Origin: Escherichia coli
GTDB taxonomy: Bacteria; Pseudomonadota; Gammaproteobacteria; Enterobacterales; Enterobacteriaceae
Assembly (NCBI RefSeq): GCF_003991155.1
Contig: NZ_CP031293.1
Reading direction: 5' to 3' (one strand)
Length of the DNA: 64,000 nucleotides
Both the position numbers and the translations under genes were made by a program. Each line of letters opens with the position of its first letter. Position 1 is the stretch's first letter. Below the pieces are notes generated by a model. It made no database searches. It was given only the letters and a program-made list of their open reading frames with translations, and was not told where the DNA came from. Shown here one piece after another: positions 19,142 through 64,000 of this stretch.

Positions 19142-19207
19142 AATGGTTCGTCTTTTAGCCGTTTTATTCAGTATAGATTTGCGGCGGAATCTAACAGAAA
19201 GCAAGCA

Positions 19208-20355: not shown

Positions 20356-20374
20356 TTTTCTTGCCTTAATGCTT

Positions 20375-20460: not shown

Positions 20461-20480
20461 GGATCTTTTCTTTCGCCCAA

Positions 20481-20589: not shown

Positions 20590-20736
20590 GCGACTAACTT
20601 TACTCTTTTTTGTTCAGTTCAGAAAGCATTTTTTGTAATTTTTTTTCAGTTGTTGCATAGGAATTTCTAATAGCCATCACAAAACGTGACAGCTTATGTT
20701 GCTTACTTACGAAAAAAGGGCATGTTCAGGCGAATC

Positions 20737-23523
20737 TTAGTGCGCCTGATCCCAGTTTTCGCCACTCCCCACTTCCACCAGCAACGGCACATCCAGACGG
20801 GTACAGTTTTCCATCAGTTGATGAATCTGCTTCGCGACGGCATCGACATCATCTTTATGAACTTCAAATACCAGTTCATCGTGTACCTGCATGATCATAC
20901 GTACACGCGGTTGCTCAGCCTGTAGCCACGCATCAACGGCAATCATCGCCCGTTTGATAATGTCGGCGGCGGTTCCCTGCATTGGCGCGTTAATGGCTGC
21001 ACGTTCAGCCGCTGCACGACGAGCACCATTGCTGGATTTGATATCCGGCAGATACAGACGGCGTCCGTCCAGCGTTTCAACGTAGCCCTGCTCTTTCGCC
21101 TGAGCACGGGTGCGTTCCATATACTCCAGCACGCCAGGGTAGCGTTCGAAGTAAAGGTCCATGTACTTCTGCGCTTCTTTACGTGGAATGTTCAATTGCC
21201 GCGCCAGGCCGAAAGCACTCATGCCATAAATCAGACCAAAGTTGATCGCTTTCGCGCTACGGCGTTGCTCGCTGGTTACGGTTTCCAGTGGTAAACCAAA
21301 CACTTCTGCCGCCGTAGCCCGGTGGATATCTTTTCCTTCCGCGAATGCGGTCAGCAAGCCTTTGTCACGCGAGAGATGCGCCATAATGCGCAGTTCAATC
21401 TGCGAGTAGTCCGCCGAGACAATCACATAATCCTCTGGCGCAATAAACGCCTGGCGGATACGACGACCTTCTTCATTACGCACCGGAATGTTTTGCAGGT
21501 TAGGATCGGTTGACGATAAACGTCCCGTTGCGGTTACTGCCTGGTGATAAGAGGTATGTACACGCCCGGTTTTCGGGTTGATCATCAACGGCAGCTTGTC
21601 GGTGTAGGTCGATTTCAGCTTCGCCAGACCACGATACTCCAGAATCACTTTTGGCAACGGATAGTCCAGCGCCAGTTCTTCCAGTACCTCTTCCGACGTT
21701 GACGGCGCGCCACCCGGCGTTTTCTTCAGCGGTTTAATGCCCTGTTTTTCAAACAGAATGGTTTGTAACTGCTTGGTGGAAGAAAGGTTAAATTCTTCAC
21801 CTGCAATTTCATGCGCTTTCTTTTCCAGCTCAGCCAGACGCAAGGTGAGCTCTTCAGAGTGATTGTGCAGCACTTTCGGATCGATCTTCACACCGTTACG
21901 TTCAATGCGTGAAAGCACCGGCACCAGCGGCATTTCGATATTCTCGAAGACGTTCAACGGCCCTTTGTGTTTTTGCAGATCCGGCCACATTTTCAGATGC
22001 AACTGCAAGGTGACATCTGCATCTTCGGCGGCGTAACGTCCGGCTTCTTCGAGGGCAATCTGGTTAAAGGTCAGTTGATTTTTGCCTTTACCCGCAATCT
22101 CTTCAAAAGTGATGGTTTTGTGCTTCAACCAACGTTCCGCGAGGCTGTCCATATCGTGACGCCCGGCAACGCTATTGAGAATGTAGGACTCCAGCATGGT
22201 ATCAAACGCAATCCCACGTAGTTCAATGCCGTAGTTCGCCAGAATACCGCGATCGTATTTCAGGTTTTGCCCGACCTTCAGCGCCTTTTCATCTTCCAGC
22301 AGCGGTTTTAGCAACTCGAGTGCACGCTCGCGAGAGATTTGATCGGGCGCATCAAGATAATCATGAGCAACCGGAATATATGCCGCTACGCCTGGCTCGA
22401 TAGCAAAAGAAAGCCCGACCAGGTTAGCAGAGATGTTATCAAGGCTGTCGGTTTCGGTATCAAATGCAAATACCGGCGCTTTTTCCAGCTTCGCAATCCA
22501 CTCTTTCAGTGTTTCTTCATCAAGGATGGTGACGTAGTTGTCATAAGAAATCACCGTTGCCGTCACTTCTGGCGCTTCGTCTGCAACACTGGTTTCCTGC
22601 GGCCTGGCTGCGGGTTTCACCCCTTTAGCCTGTAGCCATTTGCCCGCTTCGACATCAGCAGTCCAGCGTTTGAACTCATACTTTTTGAACAGCCCTAACA
22701 ACTCTTCCGCCGCCGGTGGCTGCACTTCCAGTTGTTCACAGGTCAGCTCCAGTTCAACGTCGGTTTTAATCGTCGCCAGCTGGTATGAGAGATAAGCAAC
22801 TTCTTTGTTTTGCTCGAGCTTCGCTGCCATTGTTTTCGCGCCACGGAAGCTCAACCCAGCAATTTTTTCTGGCTCGGCATACAGCGTATCCAGCCCGCCA
22901 AGACCTTGCAGCAATGCCTGCGCGGTTTTTTCACCGACGCCCGGTACGCCAGGAATGTTATCAGAGGAGTCACCCATCAGCGCCAGGAAATCGATGATCA
23001 GTTCTGGCGGCACGCCGTACTTATTCACCACCTCTTCCGGTCCGAGGATGGTATTCGTCATGGTGTTGATAAGCGTGATATTTGGTGTCACCAGCTGCGC
23101 CATATCTTTATCGCCAGTGCTGATCAGCACCGGACGCCCGGCTTTTTCGGCTTCGCGCGCCAGAGTACCAATAACGTCGTCCGCTTCTACGCCAGAAACC
23201 GCCAGCAGCGGCAGTCCCATCGCTTTAACCATCGCGTGCAGAGGTTCGATTTGTGCTCGCAGATCGTCCGGCATTGGCGGGCGATGTGATTTGTAATGTT
23301 CAAACAGTTCATCACGAAAGGTTTTTCCCTTGGCGTCAAAGACCACCGCTGCATGCGTCGGTTTATATTGCATGATCAGACTGCGCAGCATGTTGAGGAC
23401 ACCATACATCGCACCAGTCGGCTCGCCTGCGCTGTTAGTCAGCGGGGGAAACGCGTGATATGCGCGATAAAGATAAGATGAACCATCTACAAGGATAAGT
23501 GGATTTTGGGGGATCTGAACCAT
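20737..23523 (-). CDS. polA: DNA polymerase I
   Basis: 928-aa ORF; 5'-3' exonuclease, 3'-5' exonuclease and polymerase domains. Confidence 0.97.
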
Positions 23524-23646
23524 AATGTCCGTGCCTGTTTATCAGATTATGGGTAAAGGATGCCACAGACAGGATGAAAACATGAGTTTTTCACCGCTTT
23601 TCGTGAAAATCTTTTGTAGATCTTCTGGATCGCTCGCAAATCGTCA

Positions 23647-23655
23647 TGTGGATAA
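23647..23655 (+). promoter_or_regulatory. DnaA box in the polA promoter region
   Basis: TGTGGATAA is the reverse complement of the consensus TTATCCACA, about 125 bp upstream of the polA ATG; a second near-match TGTGGATAG lies at 23788-23796. Confidence 0.6.
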
Positions 23656-23886
23656 CTTTGTGCATAAATTATTTACATCACTTTTAATTTATTATCATGC
23701 TTTTTACAGCATGATGTTTATCTTTGTTTTTCATGCAGTTAAAAATAAAGCCATCCCTAATAATTGAGATAATGGGATTTTTTCTAATGTGGATAGATAT
23801 GAATTATTTTTCTCCTTAAGGATCATCCGTTATTTGGGTCGTTTTCTGCTAAAATCTGCGCCTTGCGCTTCTTTAGCGCACTGTCT

Positions 23887-24819
23887 ATGGCTAACCTTTT
23901 GAATAAATTCATTATGACGAGAATACTCGCTGCGATAACCCTTTTGCTGAGTATCGTATTGACCATTTTGGTCACTATTTTTTGTTCCGTCCCGATCATC
24001 ATTGCCGGGATTGTAAAACTATTGCTACCTGTGCCAGTCATTTGGCGAAAGGTTTCGCGTTTTTGTGATTTTATGATGTATTGCTGGTGTGAAGGTCTGG
24101 CGGTATTACTGCATCTGAACCCACACCTGCAATGGGAAGTTCACGGGCTGGAAGGGTTAAGTAAGAAGAACTGGTATCTGCTTATTTGTAACCACCGTAG
24201 TTGGGCAGATATTGTCGTACTGTGCGTGCTGTTTCGTAAGCACATTCCGATGAATAAATATTTCCTCAAGCAGCAGCTGGCCTGGGTGCCATTTCTTGGC
24301 CTGGCGTGCTGGGCGCTGGATATGCCGTTTATGAAGCGTTATTCCCGCGCTTATTTATTACGTCATCCGGAGCGACGTGGTAAAGATGTTGAAACCACTC
24401 GGCGTTCTTGTGAAAAGTTTCGCCTGCATCCCACCACCATTGTCAATTTCGTTGAAGGCTCCCGTTTCACGCAAGAAAAACATCAGCAAACCCACTCCAC
24501 TTTTCAAAACTTGTTGCCACCAAAGGCGGCAGGCATTGCGATGGCGCTAAATGTACTGGGTAAACAATTCGATAAACTGCTTAATGTTACGCTGTGTTAT
24601 CCGGACAATAACCGTCAGCCGTTCTTCGATATGTTAAGCGGTAAACTGACGCGGATTGTCGTACATGTGGATTTACAGCCTATTGCCGATGAGTTACATG
24701 GCGACTACATCAATGACAAAAGCTTTAAGCGCCATTTTCAGCAATGGCTGAACTCATTGTGGCAGGAAAAAGACCGGCTTCTGACATCGTTGATGTCATC
24801 ACAGCGGCAGGAAAAGTAA
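23887..24819 (+). CDS. yihG: PlsC-family lysophospholipid acyltransferase
   Basis: ORF 23863..24819 (TTG in track); probable ATG start MANLLNKF at 23887; acyltransferase HxxxxD-type motif NHRSWADI. Confidence 0.85.
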
Positions 24820-24823
24820 GTTT

Positions 24824-24852
24824 TACTCGCCTCTGAATGAGCAGAGGCGAGT
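24824..24852. terminator. Bidirectional hairpin between convergent yihG and yihF
   Basis: tcgcctctg-aatga-gcagaggcga perfect 10-bp stem with T-rich flanks. Confidence 0.6.
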
Positions 24853-24859
24853 GAGTATT

Positions 24860-26290
24860 TTAATGAACAAAACGTCCGGCACGAGACATAAATTCTTCTT
24901 CGCTCATCTCCTGTCCGTTAAAAACAACTTTACCCGGTGTATAACGCAGTTGCAGCGAGGCGGTATTGTTGTCAATCGTGATTAACTGCAACATCTGACC
25001 TAATGTCATCATCCCGCTGATTTGTTTATCAGCCTGCTTTTGCGCTTTTTCAGCATCCATCCCTTCAGATAAATTAAGCTGTTTTGCGGTTTCTGTGACG
25101 ACATTAAGCGGTAACTTCACATCAAAATTGAGCGATTTAATATCTTTGTTTGTGGATGATGAAGATTTGGCTGGGTCGGCAATACTGATATCCAGATTGG
25201 CATTTAGTTCGCCGAGTGCGTTCTTCCATCTTACCGGTTGTTTAATGGTCGGCTCACTTTTTTGTAATAACGGTAAATACTCTTTGAACAATGCAGCATT
25301 CACTTCTTGCAGAGCAACTTCATCGTTTGCTAACTCAGGGTGTGCAGCAAGGTGCTTCTGCATCGCAATGTTATACTGGATGATAAATTGGCGCACCGCT
25401 GAGGGATCAATAGATTCAGCAATCAATGACCACTCACCACTACCGAGTTGCTGATTCCCTTTTGTTAACTTATCAAGTTCGTAGGTCAGATTGACATTGA
25501 TATAATCTTTGTCTTTAACGCGATCCAGCATGGTTTTTGCAACGAAAGCATCGATTTGGGCAACGTCTTCCCCGTGATTGATAATGTTAATCTGATTAAA
25601 TTTCGACTCGCTTTCACCAACCGGAAATTTCTTTTCTTCTAATCGCGCCAGAGAATCAATGGTAAAACTTTTTGCCGTTACTTTGTTCATTGGTGATAAT
25701 TGCAGAACAATATCTTCGACTTTGCCTTCAATATCCAGGTTAGACAATGAACTACCATCACCATTAAAAGTAAACTGGCCCTCACCAAAAGAAAACTTTC
25801 CATACTCTGCAGGGGCAACATCTAATGTCGTAGAGAATGAGCCACCAAACGCGAATCGCAATGTCGCTTCCACGGGCGATTTATTTTTCGCGGCGATAAA
25901 TAGCGGTTGTGTCAGTTCATTATTCACTAAGTTCACTTTTGCCGCTGCCAGTGCTGGGATGACATTACCATGCATTAACATTGTGATGGGCAACGGACCG
26001 TGCTCAACATCCACATCAAATACAACTTTCTGGCCTGGCTTGATATTGAGATCGGGTGCACCGTTATCGAATGTCATTTGCATTTGAAAACGGGAATTAA
26101 AAAAGCCTTTGTCAAAGTTTTTATAACTTAACGTCATATCGTAGGCATGTTCACCTTTCTTTTTCGCATCGTTAAAATCTTTAATAAACTTTTCGACACC
26201 AGGCTGAATTTGCGTACCTGTGTACCATGTGCCACCACCCCAGATTACGGCTAACGCAACAATAACACCTGTAGCTGACTTATGTATCAT
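24860..26290 (-). CDS. yihF: DUF945-family exported protein
   Basis: 476-aa ORF with N-terminal signal/anchor sequence. Confidence 0.85.
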   Translation of the reverse strand: MIHKSATGVIVALAVIWGGGTWYTGTQIQPGVEKFIKDFNDAKKKGEHAYDMTLSYKNFDKGFFNSRFQMQMTFDNGAPDLNIKPGQKVVFDVDVEHGPLPITMLMHGNVIPALAAAKVNLVNNELTQPLFIAAKNKSPVEATLRFAFGGSFSTTLDVAPAEYGKFSFGEGQFTFNGDGSSLSNLDIEGKVEDIVLQLSPMNKVTAKSFTIDSLARLEEKKFPVGESESKFNQINIINHGEDVAQIDAFVAKTMLDRVKDKDYINVNLTYELDKLTKGNQQLGSGEWSLIAESIDPSAVRQFIIQYNIAMQKHLAAHPELANDEVALQEVNAALFKEYLPLLQKSEPTIKQPVRWKNALGELNANLDISIADPAKSSSSTNKDIKSLNFDVKLPLNVVTETAKQLNLSEGMDAEKAQKQADKQISGMMTLGQMLQLITIDNNTASLQLRYTPGKVVFNGQEMSEEEFMSRAGRFVH

Positions 26291-51366: not shown

Positions 51367-52794
51367 CTAGCGCGACTGCTGATTATATTCATCATCGCGT
51401 TGATAAGCTTCATCATTCGGCTGCTCCGGAACCGACCGCAGTCGATACTCTTCATCCTGGCTCACCGCTTGTTCAGCCAAATCCGGATTAATCTCGCGTT
51501 TAATTTCTACCCCTAAACCGCGAAACGCTTCTGCCTGCGCCAGCACATTTCCGCGACCTGAAGAGAGTTTTTTCATTGCCTGGCGGTAGTTATCCTGCGC
51601 TTTGTCGAGACTTTGACCAATCGCTGACATGTCATCGACGAACAAACGCATCTTGTCGTACAGCTTGCTGGCACGATCGGCGATTTGCTGGGCGTTGCGG
51701 CTTTGATGCTCATAACGCCACAGGTTGGCGATAGTGCGCAGCGCCACCAGCAGCGTAGTCGGGCTAACCAGCATGATATTGTTTTTCAACGCTTCGGTGA
51801 TCAGCTCCGGCTGGCGGTCAAGCGCCAGTAAAAAAGCGGGTTCAACGGGAATAAACATCAGAACGTAATCCAGGGTTCGCAGCCCCGGCAGCTGTTGATA
51901 ATCTTTGCGTCCCAGCAAACGGATATGGTTACGCACCGACGCGATATGTTCCTGTAGCGCGCTTTCGCGGGTGTAGTCATCTTCGGCGTTGAAATAGCGT
52001 TCATAGGCGACCAGCGTCATTTTGGCGTCGATCACCACATCTTTTCCCTGCGGCAACCGCACGATGACATCCGGCTGCATCCGCGAGCGGGCGTCATTTT
52101 CGATGCTGACCTGGGTTTCATATTCATACCCTTCACGCAGACCGGAAGCCTCCAGCACCCGCGTCAATACTACCTCGCCCCAGTTGCCCTGGGTTTTATT
52201 GTCGCCTTTCAGCGCACGCGTCAGGTTGATCGCTTCCTGGGCCATCTGGGCGTTGAGTTGCTGGAGGTTGCGGATTTCGTGAGTCAGGGTATGACGTTCC
52301 TGGGCTTCTTTACCAAAGCTGTCCTGGACCTGACGGCGGAAACCGTCCAGTTGTTCACGCAACGGCGACAACAGGCTGTTCAGGCTCTGACGGTTTTGCT
52401 CATCAACCCGGCGATTGCTGTGCTCAAAAATACGGTTGGCGAGGTTTTCAAACTGCTCACTGAGGCGCTGCTCGCTGTTAATCATCTGGCGAATTTTATC
52501 GTCAGCATGTTGCTGTGCAGCTTCCATCCGCGTGGTCACTTCACGCAGATCGGCCTCCAGCGAGGTGTTAATACTTTGCAGGCTGCGCACTTCGTTATTG
52601 AGTAACTCGCACTCAGCGCGCCAGTGCTCGCTTTGGGTAATTTGTTGTTTTGCCGCGCTTAACTCCGCGACCATCTCTTCACGTTCAGCTAATTGCTCGG
52701 CTTTTTGCTGCGCATGTTGATAACTGGCAAACAGCCAGCCAATTGCCACACCCACCAACGCAATAACTGCGTAAACCATGATTGAGAAATCCAC
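51367..52794 (-). CDS. rmuC: DNA recombination protein RmuC
   Basis: 475-aa ORF, N-terminal TM segment and long coiled-coil. Confidence 0.93.
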   Translation of the reverse strand: MDFSIMVYAVIALVGVAIGWLFASYQHAQQKAEQLAEREEMVAELSAAKQQITQSEHWRAECELLNNEVRSLQSINTSLEADLREVTTRMEAAQQHADDKIRQMINSEQRLSEQFENLANRIFEHSNRRVDEQNRQSLNSLLSPLREQLDGFRRQVQDSFGKEAQERHTLTHEIRNLQQLNAQMAQEAINLTRALKGDNKTQGNWGEVVLTRVLEASGLREGYEYETQVSIENDARSRMQPDVIVRLPQGKDVVIDAKMTLVAYERYFNAEDDYTRESALQEHIASVRNHIRLLGRKDYQQLPGLRTLDYVLMFIPVEPAFLLALDRQPELITEALKNNIMLVSPTTLLVALRTIANLWRYEHQSRNAQQIADRASKLYDKMRLFVDDMSAIGQSLDKAQDNYRQAMKKLSSGRGNVLAQAEAFRGLGVEIKREINPDLAEQAVSQDEEYRLRSVPEQPNDEAYQRDDEYNQQSR

Positions 52795-52913
52795 AACGCC
52801 TCCTGACGCAACAACTTACCCGCACAAAATAGAATTGTGCTGTACAAACGTCCAGTTTGAAAGAAGTTTCCTGCGAGGCGCTACGCAAAACGATCGTTAA
52901 TTTTCATTATTTT

Positions 52914-52949
52914 ATCCCACAATATGAGATGGAGTTTATATTGTGGGAT
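52914..52949 (+). promoter_or_regulatory. Perfect 12-bp inverted repeat, candidate IclR-type operator
   Basis: ATCCCACAATAT-(12 nt)-ATATTGTGGGAT, 62 bp upstream of the IclR-family gene start. Confidence 0.5.
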
Positions 52950-53010
52950 ATATCACCTTTTCCCCACGTCATTATGTGGAACACTTCAGCAATATCATCA
53001 GGAGAAACGT

Positions 53011-53778
53011 ATGGCAGAAACCTCTTCAACCACCGCAGGCGCACAAACGTTATTACGTGGACTGGCGGTTCTTAATGCTGTTTATAACGGCTGCCATGAC
53101 CTAAAAAGTATCGGCGAGTTCACCGGCACGACCCGGAGCACAACCCATCGTTTAGTCACCGTTCTGGTGGAACAACGCTACCTGCGCCATGTCCCAACGC
53201 AGGGCTACCAACTGGGTGCCAAACTGATCGAATTCGGTGCCAGAGCACTGGAAAGCACCTCGCTGTACGAAATTGCCCAGCCCGTTTTGCAACGCCTTGC
53301 CCGTTACACCCTGGACACCGTGCATCTGGGGATCGTTGAAGGCGACGAAGTGCTGTATCTGGAGAAGATCAACAGTCAGCGCGGGCTGGAAATGCGCTCA
53401 CGCCCAGGCCATCGCATGCCACTGGCAATCACCGGCATCGGCAAGGCATTGATCCTCAACCGAACAGAAGAAGAGTGGCGCACGCTGTTTAAGACCTGTG
53501 GTGATGAAACAAAACTGGGCGCATTTATTCAGAACATGCGTCGTTATGCCGCCAGTGGTTTTGCTTTTGATCTGGAAGAGAACGAGCCGACTATCCGTTG
53601 CGTTGCAGCGCCGGTTTACAACGCCCGGGATGAAATTGTGGCGGCTATTTCTGTCGCCAGTACCACCACGTATATGTCGCTGGCGCGTCTGGAAGAACTG
53701 GCACCTTACGTCAAATCCTGTGCAGAAGAGATATCCGCTGAACTGGGCTGGGGTAAGCACGTCCGCAAAGATAAATAA
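53011..53778 (+). CDS. IclR-family transcriptional regulator
   Basis: ORF 52924..53778; ATG at 53011 preceded by AGGAG; N-terminal wHTH (LRGLAVLNAV...) and C-terminal effector domain typical of IclR. Confidence 0.8.
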   Translation: MAETSSTTAGAQTLLRGLAVLNAVYNGCHDLKSIGEFTGTTRSTTHRLVTVLVEQRYLRHVPTQGYQLGAKLIEFGARALESTSLYEIAQPVLQRLARYTLDTVHLGIVEGDEVLYLEKINSQRGLEMRSRPGHRMPLAITGIGKALILNRTEEEWRTLFKTCGDETKLGAFIQNMRRYAASGFAFDLEENEPTIRCVAAPVYNARDEIVAAISVASTTTYMSLARLEELAPYVKSCAEEISAELGWGKHVRKDK

Positions 53779-53801
53779 ACCATGATTAAAGGAAACGACT
53801 A

Positions 53802-54806
53802 ATGCCGGGAGCACCCTCATTTATTGCCCTGGACTGGGGAACGTCATCGCTTCGGGCATGGCGTTTTGGCGAATCACCAAATCCACAAGAAAAACGTGAA
53901 TTCCCCTGGGGGATCATGAAATTACCCTCCCAGGCAGCAACACGTGAGGACGCTTTCCACGATACGTTTTTACGTGTCTGCGGCGACTGGCTGGCACAAA
54001 CCCCATGCCCGGTACTGGCTTGCGGCATGCTCGGCAGTGCGCAAGGGTGGCAACCAGCAGCTTATTTACCTTGCCCGGTCACTCTCGAGGGTCTGGCGAA
54101 GCAGTTGACGCCTGTTATCCACCAGCAGCAGACAATGCTGCACATCATTCCTGGCGTGATTAAAGAAGGTGAAATGCCCGAAGTGATGCGTGGCGAAGAG
54201 ACACAAATCTTCGGTGCTATCTCGATGGAACCGGCCCTGCAAAACGCGATCCATCAGGGTATGCCAGTGCTGATAGGCTTACCCGGCACACATGCGAAAT
54301 GGGCAGTAGTTGAAAACAACACCATTACCGATTTCCGAACCTTTATGACGGGCGAGTTATTTGATGTTTTATCCCGCCATTCGATTCTCGGTGCCACCAT
54401 GCATCCTGGAGATGAACCGCACTGGGATGCCTTCACCCACGGGCTGACAGCAGCACAAGAGCATCATCAGACCGGATTATTATCGACGCTGTTTTCGACC
54501 CGTTCGCGCCTGCTGACCAGTAATCTTACGTCGTCCTCGCAGGGGGATTACCTTTCCGGATTACTGATAGGCCATGAATTATGTGGTCTGGCATCCAGTT
54601 TGCTACGTGATTTACCCGCCACAACACCGATCGCCTTAATCGGTAGCGCAAATCTGAACAGCCGCTATTCACAAGCATTCAACCACGTTTTTCCCGACAG
54701 ACAGATACACGCCATTCCCAATGCCACTGAACAGGGATTATGGCGAATCGCCCACGCTGCCGGGTTACTGTCCACCAACGCCAGGGAATGTACCCATGCC
54801 ATTTAA
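53802..54806 (+). CDS. 2-dehydro-3-deoxygalactonokinase (DgoK)-family sugar-acid kinase
   Basis: 334-aa ORF; motifs shared with DgoK as recalled: IALDWGTS-LRAW, VMRGEETQ, PGTHAKW, DFRTFMTGEL, LSGLLIG; RBS AAAGGAAA upstream. Confidence 0.7.
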   Translation: MPGAPSFIALDWGTSSLRAWRFGESPNPQEKREFPWGIMKLPSQAATREDAFHDTFLRVCGDWLAQTPCPVLACGMLGSAQGWQPAAYLPCPVTLEGLAKQLTPVIHQQQTMLHIIPGVIKEGEMPEVMRGEETQIFGAISMEPALQNAIHQGMPVLIGLPGTHAKWAVVENNTITDFRTFMTGELFDVLSRHSILGATMHPGDEPHWDAFTHGLTAAQEHHQTGLLSTLFSTRSRLLTSNLTSSSQGDYLSGLLIGHELCGLASSLLRDLPATTPIALIGSANLNSRYSQAFNHVFPDRQIHAIPNATEQGLWRIAHAAGLLSTNARECTHAI

Positions 54807-55425
54807 TACGCTTTTGCAAAAAACCGGTTTAGTCGCCATTTTACGCGGTGTGAAACCGGATGAGATTGTCGCCATCGGTGAAAAACTGTACGCCGCCGGA
54901 TTCCGCCTGATTGAGATTCCTATGAACTCGCCGGAGGCGTTGCAAAGTATCAGTTTACTGCGCGACGCCCTGCCTAAGGACTGCCTGGTCGGAGCCGGAA
55001 CTGTGCTTTCGGTAGAGCAGGTGGTTGCGGTTAAAGAGGCTGGGGGCCAGATTATCGTGATGCCGCATTGCGATACTGCGGTGATCCGTCGCGCCCGTGC
55101 GCTGGGTATGTATTGTGCGCCTGGCGTCGCCACGCCCACCGAAGCCTTTGCTGCCATTGAACATGGTGCTAATGCCATCAAGCTGTTCCCAGCTGAACAA
55201 ATTACGCCAGAAGTTACCAAAGCCTGGCGTGCGGTTATTCCACAATCCGTTCCGATGTTACCGGTTGGCGGTATCACACCGGAAACCATGGCGCGTTATC
55301 TGAGCCACGGCGCAAACGGCTTTGGCCTCGGTTCTGCGCTATATCACCCCGGCATGACGCCAGAGCAAGTCTATGAAAATGCAGTACTGTTTATGAACGC
55401 ATGGAACAATTTAAATAGCAACTAA
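54796..55425 (+). CDS. KDPG/KDPGal (DgoA/Eda)-family class I aldolase
   Basis: ORF 54721..55425; probable start MPFNTLLQKTGLVAILRGV at 54796, overlapping the kinase 3' end by 11 nt; aldolase-family motifs (IEIPMNSP, GAGTVL, PGVATPTE, VGGITPE). Confidence 0.7.
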   Translation: MPFNTLLQKTGLVAILRGVKPDEIVAIGEKLYAAGFRLIEIPMNSPEALQSISLLRDALPKDCLVGAGTVLSVEQVVAVKEAGGQIIVMPHCDTAVIRRARALGMYCAPGVATPTEAFAAIEHGANAIKLFPAEQITPEVTKAWRAVIPQSVPMLPVGGITPETMARYLSHGANGFGLGSALYHPGMTPEQVYENAVLFMNAWNNLNSN

Positions 55426-55449
55426 CTGATAAATAAGGATATAAAAGCA

Positions 55450-56424
55450 ATGATAAAACATCTTACCTTACCGAAAAAAATGGCTGCAATGGTACTTCTT
55501 GCAGGCGCTGCCCTCAGCATTGCGCCTGTACAGGCAGCCTCCTACCCAACCAAACAGATCGAGTTAGTCGTTCCCTACGCTGCCGGAGGCGGTACGGATC
55601 TGGTTGCCCGTGCCTTTGCTGATGCCGCCAAAAACCATTTACCCGTCAGCATCGGGGTTATCAATAAACCTGGCGGAGGCGGTGCTATCGGCCTGAGTGA
55701 AATCGCCGCTGCCCGCCCTGGCGGTTACAAAATTGGTTTAGGCACAGTTGAACTGACCACCCTTCCCAGCCTCGGAATGGTGCGTTTTAAAACCAGCGAC
55801 TTTAAACCCATTGCCCGTCTGAATGCGGATCCGGCTGCTATCACAGTCCGTGCCGATGCGCCGTGGAATAGCTATGAAGAATTTATGACTTACGCCAAAG
55901 CGAATCCCGGAAAAGTACGCATTGGTAACTCAGGCACCGGAGCTATCTGGCATCTGGCGGCAGCTGCACTGGAAGACAAAACGGGCGCAAAGTTTTCTCA
56001 TGTCCCGTATGACGGCGCAGCCCCTGCCATTACAGGCCTGTTAGGCGGGCACATTGAAGCGGTTTCCGTAAGCCCAGGAGAAGTTATCAACCATGTGAAT
56101 GGCGGCAAGCTGAAGACACTGGTAGTGATGGCGGATGAGCGAATGAAAACCATGCCTGACGTCCCGACGTTAAAAGAGAAAGGCGTTGATCTCTCCATCG
56201 GCACCTGGCGCGGCCTGATTGTGTCGCAAAAAACGCCGCAGGATGTGGTGGATGTTCTGGCAAAGGCAGCAAAAGAGACGGCTGAAGAGCCTGCATTCCA
56301 GGATGCACTGCAAAAGTTGAATCTCAACTATGCATGGCTTGACGCTGCCAGCTTCCAGACCCAAATCAGCGAACAGGAAAAGTACTTTGACGAGTTGCTG
56401 ACTCGCCTGGGCCTGAAAAAATAA
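55450..56424 (+). CDS. tctC: Tripartite tricarboxylate transporter (TTT) periplasmic substrate-binding protein, TctC/Bug family
   Basis: 324-aa ORF; signal peptide; resembles TctC/Bug proteins. Confidence 0.8.
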   Translation: MIKHLTLPKKMAAMVLLAGAALSIAPVQAASYPTKQIELVVPYAAGGGTDLVARAFADAAKNHLPVSIGVINKPGGGGAIGLSEIAAARPGGYKIGLGTVELTTLPSLGMVRFKTSDFKPIARLNADPAAITVRADAPWNSYEEFMTYAKANPGKVRIGNSGTGAIWHLAAAALEDKTGAKFSHVPYDGAAPAITGLLGGHIEAVSVSPGEVINHVNGGKLKTLVVMADERMKTMPDVPTLKEKGVDLSIGTWRGLIVSQKTPQDVVDVLAKAAKETAEEPAFQDALQKLNLNYAWLDAASFQTQISEQEKYFDELLTRLGLKK

Positions 56425-56437
56425 ACCTGAGGTACGG

Positions 56438-56947
56438 TTGATGAACACAAAACAGTCTGTTGCTCAACTCGCCGTACCGCACCGCAAGCGCCTTTCATCA
56501 ACGATGGTGGTGGCGCTGTTACTTTGTGTGGTTGCTGGCGCGGTGATGATTAATGCCGCTGATTTTCCAGCAACGGCCATTGAAACGGATCCCGGTGCAA
56601 GTGCCTTCCCTACTTTCTATGCCTGCGCTCTGATTGTGCTCGCTGTCTTGCTGGTGATACGCGATCTTTTGCAGGCAAAACCAGCCTCTTGCGCCAACGC
56701 ACAGGAAAAACCGGCATTCAGGAAAACGGCAACAGGAATTGCGGCAACCGCGTTTTATATTGTGGCGATGAGCTACTGCGGTTATCTCATTACTACTCCT
56801 GTTTTCCTCATCGTCATTATGACGTTGATGGGCTACAGGCGATGGGTACTCACACCGGGTATTGCGCTGCTGTTAACGGCAATCCTCTGGTTGCTGTTTG
56901 TCGAAGCGTTACAGGTGCCATTGCCTGTCGGCACATTTTTCGAATAA
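56438..56947 (+). CDS. tctB: TTT small membrane subunit TctB
   Basis: 169-aa hydrophobic ORF between tctC and tctA. Confidence 0.7.
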   Translation: MMNTKQSVAQLAVPHRKRLSSTMVVALLLCVVAGAVMINAADFPATAIETDPGASAFPTFYACALIVLAVLLVIRDLLQAKPASCANAQEKPAFRKTATGIAATAFYIVAMSYCGYLITTPVFLIVIMTLMGYRRWVLTPGIALLLTAILWLLFVEALQVPLPVGTFFE

Positions 56948-56959
56948 CAGGGGCCAGCA

Positions 56960-58450
56960 ATGTTTGAAAGTGAACTTTTAACTCAGGGTTTTTCGACATT
57001 ACTCAATAATCCTCAGGCGCTGCTGTTTGCCACTTTTGGGGTGATGCTGGGTATTGTGATTGGCGCTTTGCCTGGTCTGACAGCGACCATGGGTGTGGCG
57101 ATTTTGCTGCCTTTCACCTACGGCATGGAGCCTGTTTCTGGCTTGTTGATGATTTGCGGCGTCTTTTTTGGTGGCGTCTACGGTGGTTCTATCACCGCAA
57201 TTTTGCTCAAAATTCCCGGAACGCCTGCCGCCGCAGCCACCGCTATTGATGGTTATGAGCTGACGAAACAGGGAAAAGCAGGGCTGGCATTGAGTGCCGC
57301 CACGTTCTCTTCCTTTAGTGGCGGAACGCTCAGCATTATCGTGCTGATGTTTCTCTCTCCGGTACTTGCCAGTTGGGCGCTGAAATTTAGTGCCTCGGAG
57401 TCCTTCGCCCTGGCAACCTTCGGACTGAGCATTATTGCCAGTATTTCCGGTGAGTCGCTGATTAAAGGGCTGATTGCCGGGGTTGGCGGATTGCTGATCG
57501 CAACGATAGGCCTTGATCCAATGGGCGGTTTTCCACGGTTTACAGGTGGATTTGTGGAGCTGATGAATGTGCCATTTATCCCGGTGATGATTGGTTTATT
57601 TGCTGCTTCAGAAGCATTCCGCTCTATGGAGCAAAACCAGCAAATTCGTCAGGGGGCGAAGGTGGCTATCGGCAGTCTGTTACTGCCCTGGCAAACACTA
57701 CGCCGCATTGCATTAACCATTTTGCGCTCATCAGGATTAGGGGTTTTTATCGGCATGATCCCCGGTGCGGGGGCGGATATTGCAGCTTTTGTTGCCTATA
57801 ACGAAACTCGTCGTTTCAGTAAGACACCAGAAAACTTTGGTAAGGGTGAAATTAAAGCTGTGGCCTCCTGTGAGGCAGGCGCGAATGGCTGCACCGGTGG
57901 CGCATTGTTACCTATGCTGACGCTGGGGATCCCTGGCGATGCGGTAACCGCCATCATGCTGGGCGCGTTAACGTTACAGGGAATGCAACCAGGCCCGCTG
58001 ATGTTTACCGACCACGGCGATATGGTTTATACACTGTTTGTCGGCATGATCTTTTGTTACTTCATGCTGCTAGTTCTTGGACTGCTCTCTTTGAAAGTCA
58101 TCGGTAACGTGGTGAAGATCCCCGGCAATATTCTCACACCGATGATCCTCGCACTTTGTGTGGTCGGGACTTATGCGTTGAACAATAGCCTGTTTGATGT
58201 TGGCATTATGCTGATTGCAGGCGTGGTGGGCTATTTCATGCAGAAAGGAGGATATCCGGCATCACCCGTAGTGCTGGCATTGATTATGGGCCCGATGGCA
58301 GAAAGTAATTTTCGCCGTGCGCTGTCGCTTTCAGGGGGTTCACTGGACTTTCTGTATACCCGACCGGTCACTCTGGCATTGCTAACTCTGGCAGCCTTTA
58401 CGCTACTGACGCCAATAATCCGCAAAATAATGCGTTTACGGCGTCAGTAA
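56960..58450 (+). CDS. tctA: TTT large permease subunit TctA
   Basis: 496-aa polytopic membrane ORF with Gly-rich TM segments. Confidence 0.8.
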   Translation: MFESELLTQGFSTLLNNPQALLFATFGVMLGIVIGALPGLTATMGVAILLPFTYGMEPVSGLLMICGVFFGGVYGGSITAILLKIPGTPAAAATAIDGYELTKQGKAGLALSAATFSSFSGGTLSIIVLMFLSPVLASWALKFSASESFALATFGLSIIASISGESLIKGLIAGVGGLLIATIGLDPMGGFPRFTGGFVELMNVPFIPVMIGLFAASEAFRSMEQNQQIRQGAKVAIGSLLLPWQTLRRIALTILRSSGLGVFIGMIPGAGADIAAFVAYNETRRFSKTPENFGKGEIKAVASCEAGANGCTGGALLPMLTLGIPGDAVTAIMLGALTLQGMQPGPLMFTDHGDMVYTLFVGMIFCYFMLLVLGLLSLKVIGNVVKIPGNILTPMILALCVVGTYALNNSLFDVGIMLIAGVVGYFMQKGGYPASPVVLALIMGPMAESNFRRALSLSGGSLDFLYTRPVTLALLTLAAFTLLTPIIRKIMRLRRQ

Positions 58451-58457
58451 CTGATAT

Positions 58458-58487
58458 CGCTCCCCGAAGTTGGGGAGCGTTTTTTTA
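58458..58487 (+). terminator. Rho-independent terminator ending the accessory operon (abuts the udp stop)
   Basis: cgctccccgaagttggggagcg followed by TTTTTTT. Confidence 0.8.
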
Positions 58488-59249
58488 TTTCAGCAGACGA
58501 CGCGCCGCTTCCACCACGATTTTCACCGCATGGCTTTCGGTTTGTTTCATCGTCTCAGCATTCGGGATCTCTTGCTGGGTGCGGTTAACGATAACCCCCG
58601 CTACCATACCGGCACGCAGGCCCTGACTTGCACACATGGTCAGCAGGGTTGCAGATTCCATTTCATAGTTCATTACGCCCATCGCCTGCCACTCTTCCAT
58701 AGAACCTTTAAAGTGACGAACTACGCGACCAGAGTAAGTATCGTAACGTTCCTGACCAGGGTAGAAGGTATCAGAAGAAGCTGTCACGCCAACGTGAGTC
58801 GTCGCGCCAATGGATTTCGCAGCTTCAACCAGCGCAGTCGTACATTCGAAATCAGCGACAGCCGGGAATTCCAGCGGTGCGAAGTGCAGGCTCGCACCAT
58901 CCAGACGAACAGACGCCGTGGTAACCAGGACATCGCCAACATTAATATGCGGCTGAATAGCGCCCGTTGTGCCGATACGCAGGAAGGTGCGAATGCCCAG
59001 CTGTGCCAGCTCTTCAACAGCAATAGAGGTAGACGGGCCGCCGATACCGGTAGAGCAGACGATAACAGGTTTACCATCCAGCTCTGCACGCCAGGTGGTG
59101 AATTCGCGATGAGATGCCAGCTTAACCGGCTTATCCATCAGCGCGGCGATCTTTTCCACACGATCCGGGTCGCCAGGGACGATGGCAAGCGTAGCCCCTT
59201 GTAAATCGTTTTTAGTGAGGCCGAGATGAAAAACATCAGACTTGGACAT
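58485..59249 (-). CDS. udp: Uridine phosphorylase
   Basis: ORF 58485..59255; start [11 protein letters not shown]. Confidence 0.96.
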
Positions 59250-60576: not shown

Positions 60577-61245
60577 ATGACGCAATCCATTTTTCAGGCT
60601 CAACCCTTTGAATTACCTTTTGATCCGCGCACAACTGCACTGGTCATGATCGACATGCAGCGTGACTTTGTCGAAGCAGGGGGCTTCGGTGAGGCACTGG
60701 GCAATGATGTTTCACTGGTACGCACGGCTATCGCACCATGTACAGAGGTGCTGGCAGCCGCACGTCAAAAAGGAATTATGGTTATTCATACTCGTGAAGG
60801 CCATCGTGCAGACTTAAGCGACTGCCCGCCAGCCAAACTGACGCGCGGCGGAAAAACCTTTATTGGTGAACCAGGACCGATGGGACGCATTCTGGTCAGA
60901 GGTGAAGCAGGTCATGACATCATTCCTGAACTGTACCCGGTGGCAGGCGAACCGGTGATTGATAAGCCTGGCAAAGGCGCGTTTTATCAAACCGACTTAC
61001 ATCTGATTTTGCAAAACCACGGTATCAAGACGCTGATAGTTTGTGGTGTTACAACCGAAGTTTGCGTAACCACCACCGTGCGCGAAGCAAATGATCGTGG
61101 CTATGAATGCATTATCCCGGAAGATTGTGTCGGCTCCTATTTCCCGGAATTCCAGAAATACGCCCTCGAGATGATCAAAGCACAAGGTGCCATTTTCGGT
61201 TGGGTTACTGATTCCAAAGCCATTATTGCAGGCCTGGAAGGCTAA
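60577..61245 (+). CDS. Isochorismatase-family cysteine hydrolase (amidase-like)
   Basis: 222-aa ORF; Asp in MIDMQRDF, Lys in KPGKGAF, Cys in VCGVTTEVCV: the D-K-C triad pattern of this family. Confidence 0.75.
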   Translation: MTQSIFQAQPFELPFDPRTTALVMIDMQRDFVEAGGFGEALGNDVSLVRTAIAPCTEVLAAARQKGIMVIHTREGHRADLSDCPPAKLTRGGKTFIGEPGPMGRILVRGEAGHDIIPELYPVAGEPVIDKPGKGAFYQTDLHLILQNHGIKTLIVCGVTTEVCVTTTVREANDRGYECIIPEDCVGSYFPEFQKYALEMIKAQGAIFGWVTDSKAIIAGLEG

Positions 61246-61250
61246 CACCG

Positions 61251-62111
61251 ATGGTACAGGTTACGCTTTGCGCATCGTCGTTGGGATATCTTTTCCCGCA
61301 GAATGAAACGCAAGATTTACGTCTACATAGCGCTTTTAAACATGCGGTAAATCTGTATTCAGACGCGGGAACATTCATCACTCTGTTGTGTGCGCAAACG
61401 TATCTGAATCTCCCTGATGCAGCCAGAGTCTGGCTACCTGAATGTTGGGACTGGCGAAGAGAGATTGCCCATTCAGATCCCATTCAGTTAACCCCAGGCT
61501 TACTGCGGACACCTCGATTTTGTGTGGCGCTCGAAAACGCAACGCTCTGGCAGTCGCCATTTGTGGGGGGAATGCTGACACTTGAGGCATTCCCTTTGGT
61601 TTTCCAGCACTACCCAACGATGGCATCGCAACGGCTTTTATTTTGTCTGGAACATAACGTTCAAAGCACATTGCACCTGCCGGATAGTCTCACGCACCAG
61701 GGATTAGCGATTATGGAGCATCCAGATGCGCTGGAACGCCAGGTGCCACAACTGATCGGCTTTGGTAAAGGCTTAACGCCCGATGGAGATGACTATTTGT
61801 TGGGCTATCTGGCAGCACTCTGGTTATGGCAACTCCCTGCACCACTTGCCGATCATCAATACCGGTTGCAGCAGGTAATTGATCAACATGCGCACAACAC
61901 CACGGATATCAGTCGTCATTATCTGGAGCGTGCGCTTCAGGGACATTTTTCAGAACCGATTTGCCAGTTACTCGCACAACTGGTTGGGAGTGCATCGGCA
62001 ATGACAATCGCATCCTGTGCAGAACAGGTCATGCAATTTGGCGCAACGTCAGGAGTAGATTGCCTTGCAGGAATGCTGCATGGCTTTCGAACCCTGAACA
62101 CCATAAATTGA
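61251..62111 (+). CDS. Conserved hypothetical protein, possibly DUF2877 (YahE/YlbF-like)
   Basis: 286-aa ORF starting 5 nt after the hydrolase stop; GFGKGLTPDGDDYLLGY motif; assignment by position next to the FdrA-like gene, not verified. Confidence 0.45.
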   Translation: MVQVTLCASSLGYLFPQNETQDLRLHSAFKHAVNLYSDAGTFITLLCAQTYLNLPDAARVWLPECWDWRREIAHSDPIQLTPGLLRTPRFCVALENATLWQSPFVGGMLTLEAFPLVFQHYPTMASQRLLFCLEHNVQSTLHLPDSLTHQGLAIMEHPDALERQVPQLIGFGKGLTPDGDDYLLGYLAALWLWQLPAPLADHQYRLQQVIDQHAHNTTDISRHYLERALQGHFSEPICQLLAQLVGSASAMTIASCAEQVMQFGATSGVDCLAGMLHGFRTLNTIN

Positions 62112-62205
62112 TTTCAACCTTTTCTCCCGTAGCCCGTTTATGGGGCTACACGGGGATGCTTTGCCCGAATTTTGCTATCGGGCGGAATGAAACAGGCGTA
62201 ACAGC

Positions 62206-63765
62206 ATGAAAGTTAAATATAAAGTTTTCAGTAATCTTTATCAGGACTCAGTTTCTCTGATGCAGATTTCCGCGCAAATCAGCAAGTTGCCCGGTATTCA
62301 ACAGGCCTCGGTCGTCATGGGAACACCCAATAATCTCGAGCAATTGAGCGATGCGGGTCTGGGTAACGAAATCAACGCCAGTCCCAATGATTTAGTGATT
62401 GCAGTCATGGGTGAAGAAGATATTTGCAATGAAGCACTGGTACTGGCCCAGCAACGTCTGACCAGCAAACCCGATGATGAAACGGATAGTGGCATTAAAA
62501 CACCGGAAAAGGTCAGCCTGGAAATGGCACTGGAAGCCGAGCCCGAAGCCAACCTGGCACTCATTTCTGTACCGGGAGACTACGCCGCCGCCGAAGCAAT
62601 TAAAGCGTTAAACCTCGGAATGAACGTGATGATGTTCAGCGATAACGTCAGTATCGTGCAGGAAAAATCCATCAAAACGCTTGCCCGAGAACGTCAGCGC
62701 ATCGTAATGGGACCTGACTGTGGAACCGCCATTGTTAACGGCATTCCGTTAGGCTTCGCTAATGTGGTGAAACGCGGAGCAATTGGTGTTATTGGCGCGT
62801 CAGGCACCGGGCTACAGGAAGTGACTTGCCGAATCGACCAGCTCGGAGCGGGTATTTCTCAGGCGTTGGGAACAGGCGGACATGATCTCAGTGAAGAGAT
62901 TGGTGGAATATCGATGCTCTTCGCTTTAGATGCGCTGGCGCAAGACGATGAAACTCGCGTGATTGTGCTTATTTCAAAACCGCCTTCACCGATCGTTGCC
63001 CGGACTATTCTGGAGCGTGCCGAGGCTTGTGGAAAACCCGTGGTGGTGAATTTCCTCGGTGCGAATCCGCATGATCTGGCACGTCCCAATATCACCGCGG
63101 CCACCACACTTGCCAGCGCCGCAAATATCGCCGTGGCGTTACTGAATGATCAACCACTTCCGACTATCGAGACCGAAATTTCCTGCGACGATCTCACAAT
63201 GTTACAAAACGCCTGCCAGCGCCTGCCAGCCCATCGCCAGGCGATACGCGGTGTTTTCGCCGGAGGAACCTTCTGCTACGAAGCGCAACTTATCTGCCAA
63301 CAAAAGGGATTCAGCGCAGCCTCCAATACGCCAGTTGCGGGTAATCGTGCTCTGGCAAATATCTGGCAAAGCGAAGATCACACGTTGATCGATATGGGCG
63401 ACGATGATTTCACCCGTGGCAAACCGCATCCAATGATCGACCCGACTCTGCGCAATCAACGTCTGCTCAACGAACTCAACGACTCACACACTGCCGTCGT
63501 GTTATTCGACCTGGTACTTGGTTATGGCGCTTCCACGACGCCTGCCAGCGAATTACTGGACCAACTTTCACACATCGACATGAATAACGCACCGTTGCTG
63601 ATTGCGCACGTTTGCGGAACGGAAGCTGATCCGCAAATACGCAGTCAGCAGATAAGCGCACTACAAAATGCAGGGGTCATCATCGCCAGCAGCAATGCAC
63701 AGGCGGCGTTATGGGCCAGCACCGTTGCACAGACTCAGTTGCAGAAAAAGGGGCTAAACGCATGA
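62206..63765 (+). CDS. FdrA-family protein (CoA-binding, succinyl-CoA synthetase alpha-like fold)
   Basis: 519-aa ORF; motifs recalled from FdrA: QDSVSLM, VMGTPNN, NVMMFSDNV, MGPDCGT, IGVIGASGTG, PHPMIDPTLRNQ. Confidence 0.75.
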   Translation: MKVKYKVFSNLYQDSVSLMQISAQISKLPGIQQASVVMGTPNNLEQLSDAGLGNEINASPNDLVIAVMGEEDICNEALVLAQQRLTSKPDDETDSGIKTPEKVSLEMALEAEPEANLALISVPGDYAAAEAIKALNLGMNVMMFSDNVSIVQEKSIKTLARERQRIVMGPDCGTAIVNGIPLGFANVVKRGAIGVIGASGTGLQEVTCRIDQLGAGISQALGTGGHDLSEEIGGISMLFALDALAQDDETRVIVLISKPPSPIVARTILERAEACGKPVVVNFLGANPHDLARPNITAATTLASAANIAVALLNDQPLPTIETEISCDDLTMLQNACQRLPAHRQAIRGVFAGGTFCYEAQLICQQKGFSAASNTPVAGNRALANIWQSEDHTLIDMGDDDFTRGKPHPMIDPTLRNQRLLNELNDSHTAVVLFDLVLGYGASTTPASELLDQLSHIDMNNAPLLIAHVCGTEADPQIRSQQISALQNAGVIIASSNAQAALWASTVAQTQLQKKGLNA

Positions 63766-64000
63766 ATACCTTATTTAATCAGCCTTTGAAGGTTGTGAAC
63801 GCGGGACTACACAGTTTTGCTGACAATATTCAACATGCCGGGGGAAGCGCAATTGCACTCAACTGGCAGCCACCAGCACAAGGCGATATTGACGCTGGAT
63901 TGGATCTGGCATCGTTGCTACGTCATCCCCTGGTAGAAAATGCCAACCAAATCGCCATGACACGTTATCTCGAAGCACAGCCCGTGCTGGTGGATGTCAT
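63762..64000 (+). CDS. Downstream ORF translationally coupled to the FdrA-like gene (DUF1116 YlbE/YahG-like by position), 3' end beyond window
   Basis: ATG overlaps the FdrA-like stop (ATGA); frame open to the window end (MNTLFNQPLKVVNAGLHSF...); family inferred from gene order only. Confidence 0.45.
   Translation, partial: MNTLFNQPLKVVNAGLHSFADNIQHAGGSAIALNWQPPAQGDIDAGLDLASLLRHPLVENANQIAMTRYLEAQPVLVDV

Follow-up and report, generated by a model that had tools for sequence, protein, structure and literature searches.

The 64,000-nucleotide stretch of Escherichia coli DNA analyzed here (from contig NZ_CP031293.1, hereafter the window) carries, between the core genes rmuC and udp, a six-gene operon for an IclR-family regulator, a DGOK-family kinase, a class I aldolase, and the three components of a tripartite tricarboxylate transporter (TTT), TctC, TctB, and TctA. 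An earlier note, made from the sequence alone, had described six co-directional genes with short spacers or overlaps, a perfect palindrome upstream, and a strong terminator downstream, and each of these features was recovered (Table 1). The six + strand reading frames are tightly spaced at 53011-58450, match the genes that RefSeq annotates at a locus of 100% identity, and follow one another at distances of 23, -11 (the kinase and aldolase genes overlap), 24, 16, and 12 bp, a spacing that fits one transcription unit. All six frames are intact in the window and in the uropathogen UTI89. As for the two protein sizes given previously, 334 aa is right for the kinase, and the aldolase has 209 aa rather than 210.

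Pfam and NCBIfam matches uphold the functions that the note had assigned (IclR, DgoK-like, DgoA-like, and TctCBA). The kinase matches Pfam DGOK (PF05035) at 4.7e-89 over model positions 1-281 of 281, has 3R1X (5.6e-37) and 3T69 as its PDB matches, and possesses the N-terminal ASKHA phosphate motif (DWG-S/T), with IALDWGTSSLRAW aligned to IAIDWGSTNLRAW of K-12 DgoK. No NCBIfam model is matched by the kinase, TctC, TctB, or TctA. The aldolase scores 320.2 bits against NF006600, the model for the aldolase of 2-keto-3-deoxy-6-phosphogalactonate (KDPGal; KDPG is the gluconate counterpart), where the cut-off is 207, and 135.8 bits against the eda model TIGR01182, below its cut-off of 156. Its catalytic residues are kept: AIKLF aligns with the Schiff-base Lys126 of DgoA, and LIEIP with Glu37.

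As in the K-12 dgo operon (dgoR-dgoK-dgoA-dgoD-dgoT), a homologous kinase (35% identical to DgoK) and aldolase (46% identical to DgoA) are encoded in the same order by overlapping frames, and the predicted end products, pyruvate and glyceraldehyde-3-phosphate, are the same. Unlike dgo, whose make-up the earlier note had given correctly, the island lacks the dehydratase DgoD, its regulator is of the IclR type rather than the GntR type of DgoR, and its transporter is a TTT instead of the major facilitator superfamily protein DgoT. DgoK and DgoA remain the best characterized matches, and full-text literature searches brought up no characterized operon of the same composition. In a rough neighbor-joining tree, the island kinase falls within a clade of IclR-linked kinases, and the dehydratase-linked DGOK genes (K-12, Roseibium, Agrobacterium, Paracoccus) lie outside it on separate branches; the tree thus separates two kinds of gene context and assigns no specificity. 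DGOK genes outside the module clade adjoin a dehydratase gene.

All TTT components are encoded together, with tctC, tctB, and tctA adjacent in C-B-A order. TctA matches PF01970 at 1.2e-151, TctB matches PF07331 at 1.9e-21, and TctC belongs to PF03401, as read on a 99%-identical cluster representative. Read by eye only, the N-terminus of TctC (MIKHLTLPKKMAAMVLLAGAALSIAPVQA/AS) resembles a Sec signal peptide with cleavage at AQA/AS. Its closest PDB match is 4X9T (1e-99), and the second closest is TTT-C of Vibrio sp. C42 (25HK, 5e-64, ~40% identity). The gene order and the three components recall the Salmonella TctCBA citrate transporter, which is regulated by the two-component system TctDE and carries tricarboxylates; unlike it, the island transporter is linked to sugar-acid enzymes and an IclR-type regulator. 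This context argues for a sugar acid, rather than a tricarboxylate, as the probable cargo. The Vibrio TTT-C binds unsaturated alginate degradation products, is required for growth on alginate, does not bind citrate, and is weakened in binding by mutation of Ser164 (PMC13390454). Gly24, Thr25, Asp26, Pro104, Thr225, and Arg227, which matter for binding according to TTT-C mutagenesis (PMC13390454), are common to TctC and TTT-C. The Vibrio system, reported to bind unsaturated oligosaccharides, is located among alginate lyases with DehR, KdgK, and Eda (PMC13390454), whereas the E. coli island consists of six genes only, with no lyase and no reductase, and the second binding loop of TctC differs (GNSGTGAIWHLA).

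The regulator carries the HTH_IclR domain (PF09339, 9e-08) and the IclR_C effector domain (PF01614, 7.2e-38), and its best NCBIfam matches, BhcR (143 bits) and KdgR (130 bits), are both below cut-off (129.7 bits against 275 for the KdgR equivalog NF011671). An AGGAG lies 7 nt before its ATG, and in several relatives iclR overlaps the kinase gene. The palindrome is found 60 bp upstream of the IclR start, with its centre 80 bp upstream, and its 13-mer has no further exact copies anywhere in the 64-kb window. By our estimate, such a 13-nt pair would arise by chance in the 216-bp spacer with a probability of ~1e-4. The palindrome is a candidate IclR operator and overlaps a TATATT -10-like hexamer at 52937-52942, where operator and promoter would putatively overlap. 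IclR, encoded by the first gene, may autoregulate the operon, and by analogy with KdgR, repression would likely work through promoter occlusion relieved by a keto-deoxy acid. The palindrome is unlike the KdgR box. Upstream regions of eight orthologous modules have no clear palindrome in common, and any half-site that they share is weak; the Enterobacter region has ATATTTCCA-N12-TGGAAATAT, and the Rhodoferax region an imperfect 21-nt repeat containing CCAAATAT. Given this weak conservation, we do not claim a cross-genus operator half-site. At the other end, a perfect 10-nt inverted repeat (TACTGACGCC / GGCGTCAGTA, 58404-58413 / 58440-58449) covers the last tctA codons and stop just upstream of the terminator hairpin. 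Rfam at gathering thresholds gave no match, and so no riboswitch or small RNA, in 52600-58700.

Table 1. Features of the rmuC-udp region, in window coordinates
Feature	Position	Strand	Description
rmuC	51367-52794	-	Core gene flanking the operon
Variable block, ~5.6 kb	~52891 to ~58489		Stands where K-12 has ~45 bp of rmuC-udp spacer
Perfect inverted repeat TATCCCACAATAT-N12-ATATTGTGGGATA	52913-52950		13-nt arms, 12-nt spacer, 100% complementary
IclR regulator	53011-53778	+	255 aa; operon gene 1; HTH_IclR + IclR_C
DGOK-family (ASKHA) 2-keto-3-deoxy-hexonate kinase	53802-54806	+	334 aa; PF05035
Class I (Schiff-base) KDPGal/KDPG-type aldolase	54796-55425	+	209 aa; NF006600
TctC/Bug-family periplasmic substrate-binding protein (SBP)	55450-56424	+	324 aa; PF03401
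TctB small membrane subunit	56441-56947	+	168 aa; PF07331
TctA large permease subunit	56960-58450	+	496 aa; PF01970
Intrinsic terminator CGCTCCCCGAAGTTGGGGAGCG + T7	58458-58486	+	GC-rich 9-pair stem at 58458-58479
udp	58485-59249	-	Core gene flanking the operon, convergent with it

Related modules in other bacteria

Relatives of the operon were sought by scanning one genome per species, followed by a tblastn panel and clustering of neighboring genes. Close relatives of the substrate-binding protein (SBP) TctC, with 57-84% identity, occur in alpha-, beta-, and gammaproteobacteria (Rhodoferax, Azospirillum, Skermanella, Stutzerimonas, Photobacterium, Brenneria, Phytobacter, and Enterobacter), and essentially all SBPs that are at least 57% identical sit in IclR-DGOK-aldolase-TctCBA modules. 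The module was found at ~25 proteobacterial loci and in Firmicutes variants, and at none of them did the tblastn panel detect a DgoD-type gene. Domains of the MR_MLE (enolase superfamily), ILVD_EDD, and altronate-dehydratase families were likewise absent within 9-10 kb at the eight loci annotated with Pfam.

What many relatives have in addition is a predicted enzyme for unsaturated uronates. In 16 of ~23 proteobacterial modules, we find a short-chain dehydrogenase/reductase (SDR) that matches, at 1e-103 to 1e-106, the Sphingomonas sp. A1 reductases A1-R/A1-R' for 4-deoxy-L-erythro-5-hexoseulose uronate (DEH), the unsaturated alginate monomer. In Stutzerimonas, this SDR takes seventh place in the operon, and in Kluyvera it comes after an alginate-lyase/heparinase-like gene, a GntR regulator, and a sodium:solute symporter (SSF) transporter. 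Three clostridial loci have the order IclR-aldolase-TctCBA-DGOK-SDR-KduI, with KduI at 380-389 bits against an equivalog cut-off of 250, and in Azospirillum thermophilum the module adjoins a cupin-SDR-KduI-KdgT cluster. The module of Photobacterium pectinilyticum contains an extra KduD/IdnO-like SDR and a homologue (1e-75) of Streptococcus gbs1892, which we take to be DhuI, the isomerase of the glycosaminoglycan monomer pathway. Background on that pathway is available (PMC12838403). The Enterobacter hormaechei variant (5079-14003) has a divergent Fe-alcohol dehydrogenase (Fe-ADH) and, besides its DGOK gene, a remote DGOK paralogue with 20% identity.

A1-R orthologues are integral to most non-enteric versions of the module, as in the alginate pathway of Sphingomonas sp. 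A1, where matter flows from DEH to a keto-deoxy acid, to the phosphorylated acid, and on into pyruvate plus glyceraldehyde-3-phosphate in the way proposed for the module. The kinase and the aldolase belong to other families than A1-K and A1-A, and unlike Sphingomonas, E. coli yielded no A1-R orthologue. The modules of E. coli, Phytobacter, Brenneria, and Bacillales are without a converting enzyme. In Bacillales, SBPs of 50-67% identity occur in IclR-TctCBA-PfkB kinase-Eda operons with an Eda of the Thr161 type, and KdgK/Eda in place of DGOK/aldolase reads as a non-orthologous replacement in which the same logic would be kept. The aldolases follow the kinases: those paired with a DGOK-family kinase all have beta1 Ala-Ile and beta7 Val, and those paired with a PfkB kinase all have Thr.

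From one module type to another, the pocket loops of the SBPs show almost no variation. At the position aligned with Ser164 of TTT-C, the E. coli protein has Ala, as do SBPs of KduI-, PfkB-, and reductase-free modules; Asn occupies it in 13 of 15 SBPs linked to DEH reductase, but 18 of the 21 remaining SBPs, E. coli included, have Ala, Thr, or Gly there, a contrast that is not independent of phylogeny.

Several relatives show further peculiarities. Kluyvera ascorbata (4138-9777) has a compact operon of a lyase (alginate-lyase/heparinase-II/III-like), a GntR regulator, a sodium:solute symporter, and an orthologue of the DEH reductase beside a glycyl-radical microcompartment cluster, which looks like a locus for the use of lyase products in a close relative of E. 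coli. In E. hormaechei, a second iclR lies 3' of tctA, and the distant DGOK paralogue is of the type used in the clostridial KduI operons. In 9 of 16 modules, the DEH-reductase-type SDR comes together with a regucalcin/SMP-30-like SGL gene (PF08450; for example, at 13184-14098 of one locus), even though no lactone step is expected in the conversion of DEH to 2-keto-3-deoxy-gluconate (KDG). On a plasmid of Burkholderia sp. JSH-S8 (6210-13244), the IclR-kinase-aldolase cassette is joined to an AraFGH-type (arabinose/galactose) ABC transporter and not to a TTT. The kinase of this plasmid is 46-48% identical and of the same clade, a sugar-1-dehydrogenase-like SDR lies alongside, and no dehydratase is nearby; its iclR frame looks degraded, or was omitted from the PLSDB gene table.

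Candidate substrates and a stereochemical conflict

We consider it probable, at roughly 60%, that the operon imports, phosphorylates, and cleaves a 2-keto-3-deoxy-hexonate without a dehydratase step. TctC would capture the six-carbon 2-keto-3-deoxy sugar acid in the periplasm, and TctBA, acting as a secondary, SBP-dependent transporter, would carry it into the cell, where the DGOK-family kinase would phosphorylate it at C6 and the aldolase would split the product into pyruvate and D-glyceraldehyde-3-phosphate. IclR is proposed to sit on the 13-N12-13 palindrome and to repress the operon as long as neither the acid nor a closely related derivative is bound to it. With a substrate that is keto-deoxy from the outset, no dehydratase would be needed; the earlier note had suggested such a route for an already dehydrated acid, and the lack of DgoD-type genes across the related loci supports it. 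Gene content, family membership, the conservation of the module, its accessory genes in other taxa, and its distribution are direct observations, whereas the transported ligand, its stereochemistry, the operator, and the inducer in this scheme are those that we infer.

Gene content would place the module in the metabolism of the monomers that polysaccharide lyases release from uronic-acid polymers (alginate, pectin, glycosaminoglycans). The monomers in question are DEH or DKI/DHU, with KDG as their common product, and the variable accessory enzymes would all convert these 4-deoxy-5-hexosulose uronates to 2-keto-3-deoxy-hexonate. That the substrate of the E. coli operon comes from this unsaturated-uronate and KDG branch, and not from galactonate chemistry, has in our judgment nearly an even chance. 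Since E. coli is unable to make DEH, DKI/DHU, or KDG itself, the operon would then serve cross-feeding on the products of other microbes. Modules without a converting enzyme most simply import the kinase substrate itself, and so the E. coli version, in which neither a reductase nor an isomerase is encoded, most likely imports KDG or 2-keto-3-deoxy-galactonate (KDGal); alternatively, it imports DKI, which is processed by the chromosomal KduI/KduD.

A known system with the same logic is the KDG pathway of the enterobacterial KdgR regulon (kdgT, kdgK, eda, kduI, kduD), in which, as proposed for the island, a keto-deoxy acid is taken up and passed to a kinase and a class I aldolase under the control of an IclR-family regulator. 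The regulator reaches 130 bits on the KdgR model, and relatives of the module carry KduI, KduD-like, or DhuI-like genes. Unlike that pathway, the island has an ASKHA/DGOK kinase rather than a PfkB kinase, a Val-type aldolase rather than a Thr161-type Eda, a TTT rather than KdgT, and a regulator below the KdgR cut-off of 275 bits.

A number of observations speak against this proposal. To our knowledge, the kinase family has been characterized for KDGal only. The stereochemistry of such aldolases is determined by beta1 Ala11-Ile12 and beta7 Val154, which are Pro-Val and Thr161 in Eda (Bisterfeld et al. 2016, PMC4915726), and the island aldolase bears both KDPGal-type signatures (beta1 Ala-Ile in LVAILRG, beta7 Val in PVGGI). 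By our own derivation, the chemistry of DEH, DKI, and KduI/KduD gives 4S products only (KDG, or L-KDGal on direct DKI reduction), whereas KDPGal is 4R, and a D-threo precursor is not obtained from any common uronate. Direct reduction of DKI to KDGal, which could have reconciled the SDR with galacto-type enzymes, is rejected, as it gives L-KDGal (4S,5S) and not D-KDGal. E. coli already has KdgT/KdgK/Eda for KDG, which would make the island enzymes redundant for that substrate. The Burkholderia relative suggests a galactose/KDGal role with the dehydratase encoded elsewhere, so that the absence of a dehydratase from the cluster is suggestive and not proof. Among the top 120 homologues, no DEH-reductase orthologue from E. 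coli was found, and the Kluyvera SSF-SDR genes have no DNA similarity in any of 5426 complete E. coli genomes. In addition, a sigma-70 consensus scan gave no + strand promoter upstream of the operon, and full-text literature searches found no experiment on any member of the module and no study, experimental or dedicated bioinformatic, of this E. coli locus. The sole trace in those searches is an RNA-seq study of enteropathogenic E. coli that lists 'tctA' as 2-fold down-regulated in an isolate-specific manner.

Either one of the homology-based assignments must be wrong, then, or the enzymes must be promiscuous: the DGOK/Val-type pair either acts on KDG/KDPG or is promiscuous, or else the accessory enzymes do something different. 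The KDPGal-type signature is also present in KduI-linked operons, which weakens its predictive value, and the selectivity of DgoA is only ~200-fold, compared with ~40,000-fold for Eda (PMC4915726). We tentatively suggest, while holding it short of even odds, that the DGOK kinase and Val-type aldolase of the widespread IclR-linked cassette do not belong to the galactonate pathway but are KDG/KDPG or dual KDG/KDGal enzymes, fed by a TTT that scavenges the lyase monomers DEH, DKI/DHU, and KDG.

A truly galacto-specific route, in which either D-galactonate (dehydrated by a DgoD encoded elsewhere) or free KDGal is imported and the pair is a KDGal kinase and a KDPGal aldolase, appears unlikely to us, although the best characterized matches, the aldolase score above the NCBIfam KDPGal cut-off, and both aldolase signatures point that way. 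So does the same-clade Burkholderia kinase, whose neighbors are an ABC transporter of the galactose/arabinose type and an SDR resembling sugar dehydrogenases, but no dehydratase. The clustered GalR (IclR), dgoK, and TTT genes of Salinivirga fredricksonii HL-109 form another parallel, by gene content only: this genomics-only prediction assigns D-galactonate, within a De Ley-Doudoroff locus, which is not the E. coli setting (Leyn et al. 2017, PMC5507952). In E. coli, as we reason, only KDGal import would make the island enzymes non-redundant, KDGal not being known as an inducer of the dgo operon. What counts against this route is that no galactonate dehydratase of any family was detected beside any of ~40 loci, that Bacillales pair the same transporter with gluco-type KdgK/Eda, and that, partly by our derivation, the DEH-reductase orthologue, KduI, and the DhuI-like isomerase cannot yield a 4R product from known natural uronates. 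Free KDGal is also not known to have an obvious source in the gut environment.

Import one step further upstream is rated lower still. What enters would then be not KDG but a 4-deoxy-5-hexosulose uronate (pectin or glycosaminoglycans being the source of DKI/DHU, and alginate that of DEH), and host enzymes (KduI/KduD for DKI, an unspecific aldehyde reductase for DEH) would make KDG ahead of the island kinase and aldolase. Most relatives' operons encode a converter (the A1-R-type SDR, KduI with an SDR, the Enterobacter Fe-ADH), implying an imported species upstream of KDG, the pocket loops hardly vary between modules with and without converters, and E. coli is generally known to carry kduI-kduD. 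Set against this are the lack of a DEH reductase in E. coli (top 120 homologues; DNA search of 5426 genomes), the Asn/Ala difference at the Ser164 equivalent, which sets reductase-linked SBPs apart from the E. coli type, and the converter-free Bacillales and enteric modules, most simply explained by direct import of KDG or KDGal. Very improbable, finally, is an unrelated carboxylate as cargo (e.g., citrate, as for Salmonella TctCBA) with a fortuitous kinase/aldolase linkage, or a decaying, functionless remnant in E. coli. The archetypal TTT system does carry tricarboxylates, NCBIfam has no model that fits the kinase or any of the three Tct proteins, and one strain has an IS1 insertion in the tctC region; yet gene order and kinase/aldolase co-occurrence are kept across phyla, even through non-orthologous replacement, the six frames are intact in the window and UTI89 with the island mostly at least 99% identical among E. 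coli carriers, and the related Vibrio TTT-C did not bind citrate.

The operon joins known parts in a new way, with conventional chemistry, and the nearest published work is the genomic prediction in Salinivirga (PMC5507952) and the 2026 report on the Vibrio alginate-locus TTT (PMC13390454). Its names (galactonate kinase, KDPGal aldolase) conflict with partner enzymes (DEH reductase, KduI) that make gluco-configured products, and a family-wide stereochemical mis-assignment is likely. Settling this conflict would either correct annotation in Proteobacteria and Firmicutes or reveal promiscuous keto-deoxy-hexonate enzymes. If KDG/KDPG or dual enzymes are encoded, a quarter of E. coli strains would use the first functional TTT described in E. 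coli to cross-feed on what other microbes release from dietary pectin or alginate or from host glycosaminoglycans, and the automatic annotation of thousands of genomes would be wrong in stereochemistry. If the substrate is galactonate or KDGal, this would be an ordinary paralogous sugar-acid operon. The locus would also offer a genetically tractable TTT in E. coli, from a very large family with few known substrates.

Presence, absence, and history of the island in E. coli

The earlier note had expected strain-variable content at this junction, and the survey of complete E. coli genomes agrees: the whole block lies between rmuC and udp in 1452 of 5426, about a quarter, and the K-12-type empty junction is found in 3969. 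Island and empty site together account for 5421 of the 5425 matching genomes, making the site a two-state polymorphism. UTI89 has the island, and K-12/DH5alpha, O157:H7, and O103:H2 do not. In K-12 and DH5alpha, rmuC and udp are adjacent, as the note had stated for K-12, with a spacer of 140 bp and none of the six genes. Block borders were placed by comparing the window with DH5alpha; in K-12-type genomes, similarity to a query starting at 52795 stops after the first 96 nt, and the ~45 bp of K-12 spacer exchanged for the block includes K-12's own hairpin. Such clean presence and absence of a carbon-source trait, including in the well-studied UTI89, could explain niche differences between strains via cross-feeding, with lyase products of pectin, alginate, or host glycosaminoglycans as the sources envisaged.

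The GC content of the block (0.50-0.56) is similar to that of its flanks. A comparison of the window strain with UTI89 gives 97.7-100% identity for the island genes and 97.4-99.2% for the core genes on either side, and over the length of the island most E. coli carriers reach at least 99% identity with the window. No mobility genes, tRNA, or direct repeats were found at the island borders. Phytobacter massiliensis has the same six genes at the syntenic site, where they are flanked by ubiE and udp; its SBP is 84% and its TctA 90% identical. On these grounds (no mobility genes, tRNA, or border repeats, flank-like GC and divergence, and synteny in Phytobacter), a mobile element was rejected as an explanation. 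Because Phytobacter has the module at the syntenic site and the divergence of the island matches that of its flanks, we conclude that the module is an old resident of the locus that was lost from, or recombined out of, many lineages, rather than a recent import.

Some details of the junction deserve mention. In P. massiliensis JC163 (6546-13801), rmuC is missing between ubiE and iclR. A chicken isolate (NZ_CP148498.1) has an IS1A insertion inside the island, with TctC annotated twice, and is thus a natural transporter knock-out. The right island border falls inside the last udp codons, where the T-run of the terminator overlaps the udp stop codon, and Udp of island-bearing strains has an extra C-terminal Lys (...RRLLK instead of ...RRLL in K-12; window 58485-58490).

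A second gene block lies downstream of ysgA (window 60577-64000), and its first genes are those for a cysteine hydrolase (60577-61245) and a DUF2877 protein, then fdrA. The UTI89 block (10358-25977 of the UTI89 locus) extends through genes for a DUF1116 protein, a carbamate kinase, an allophanate-hydrolase-related protein, and a cytosine permease, and further on with LysR and RpiR regulators, tkt, a ptsG-like gene, hxlB, and a tssD pseudogene, up to metE. In K-12, metE lies directly beside ysgA, so that this block, at a distance of only 1.3 kb, would count as a second variable island besides the one between rmuC and udp.

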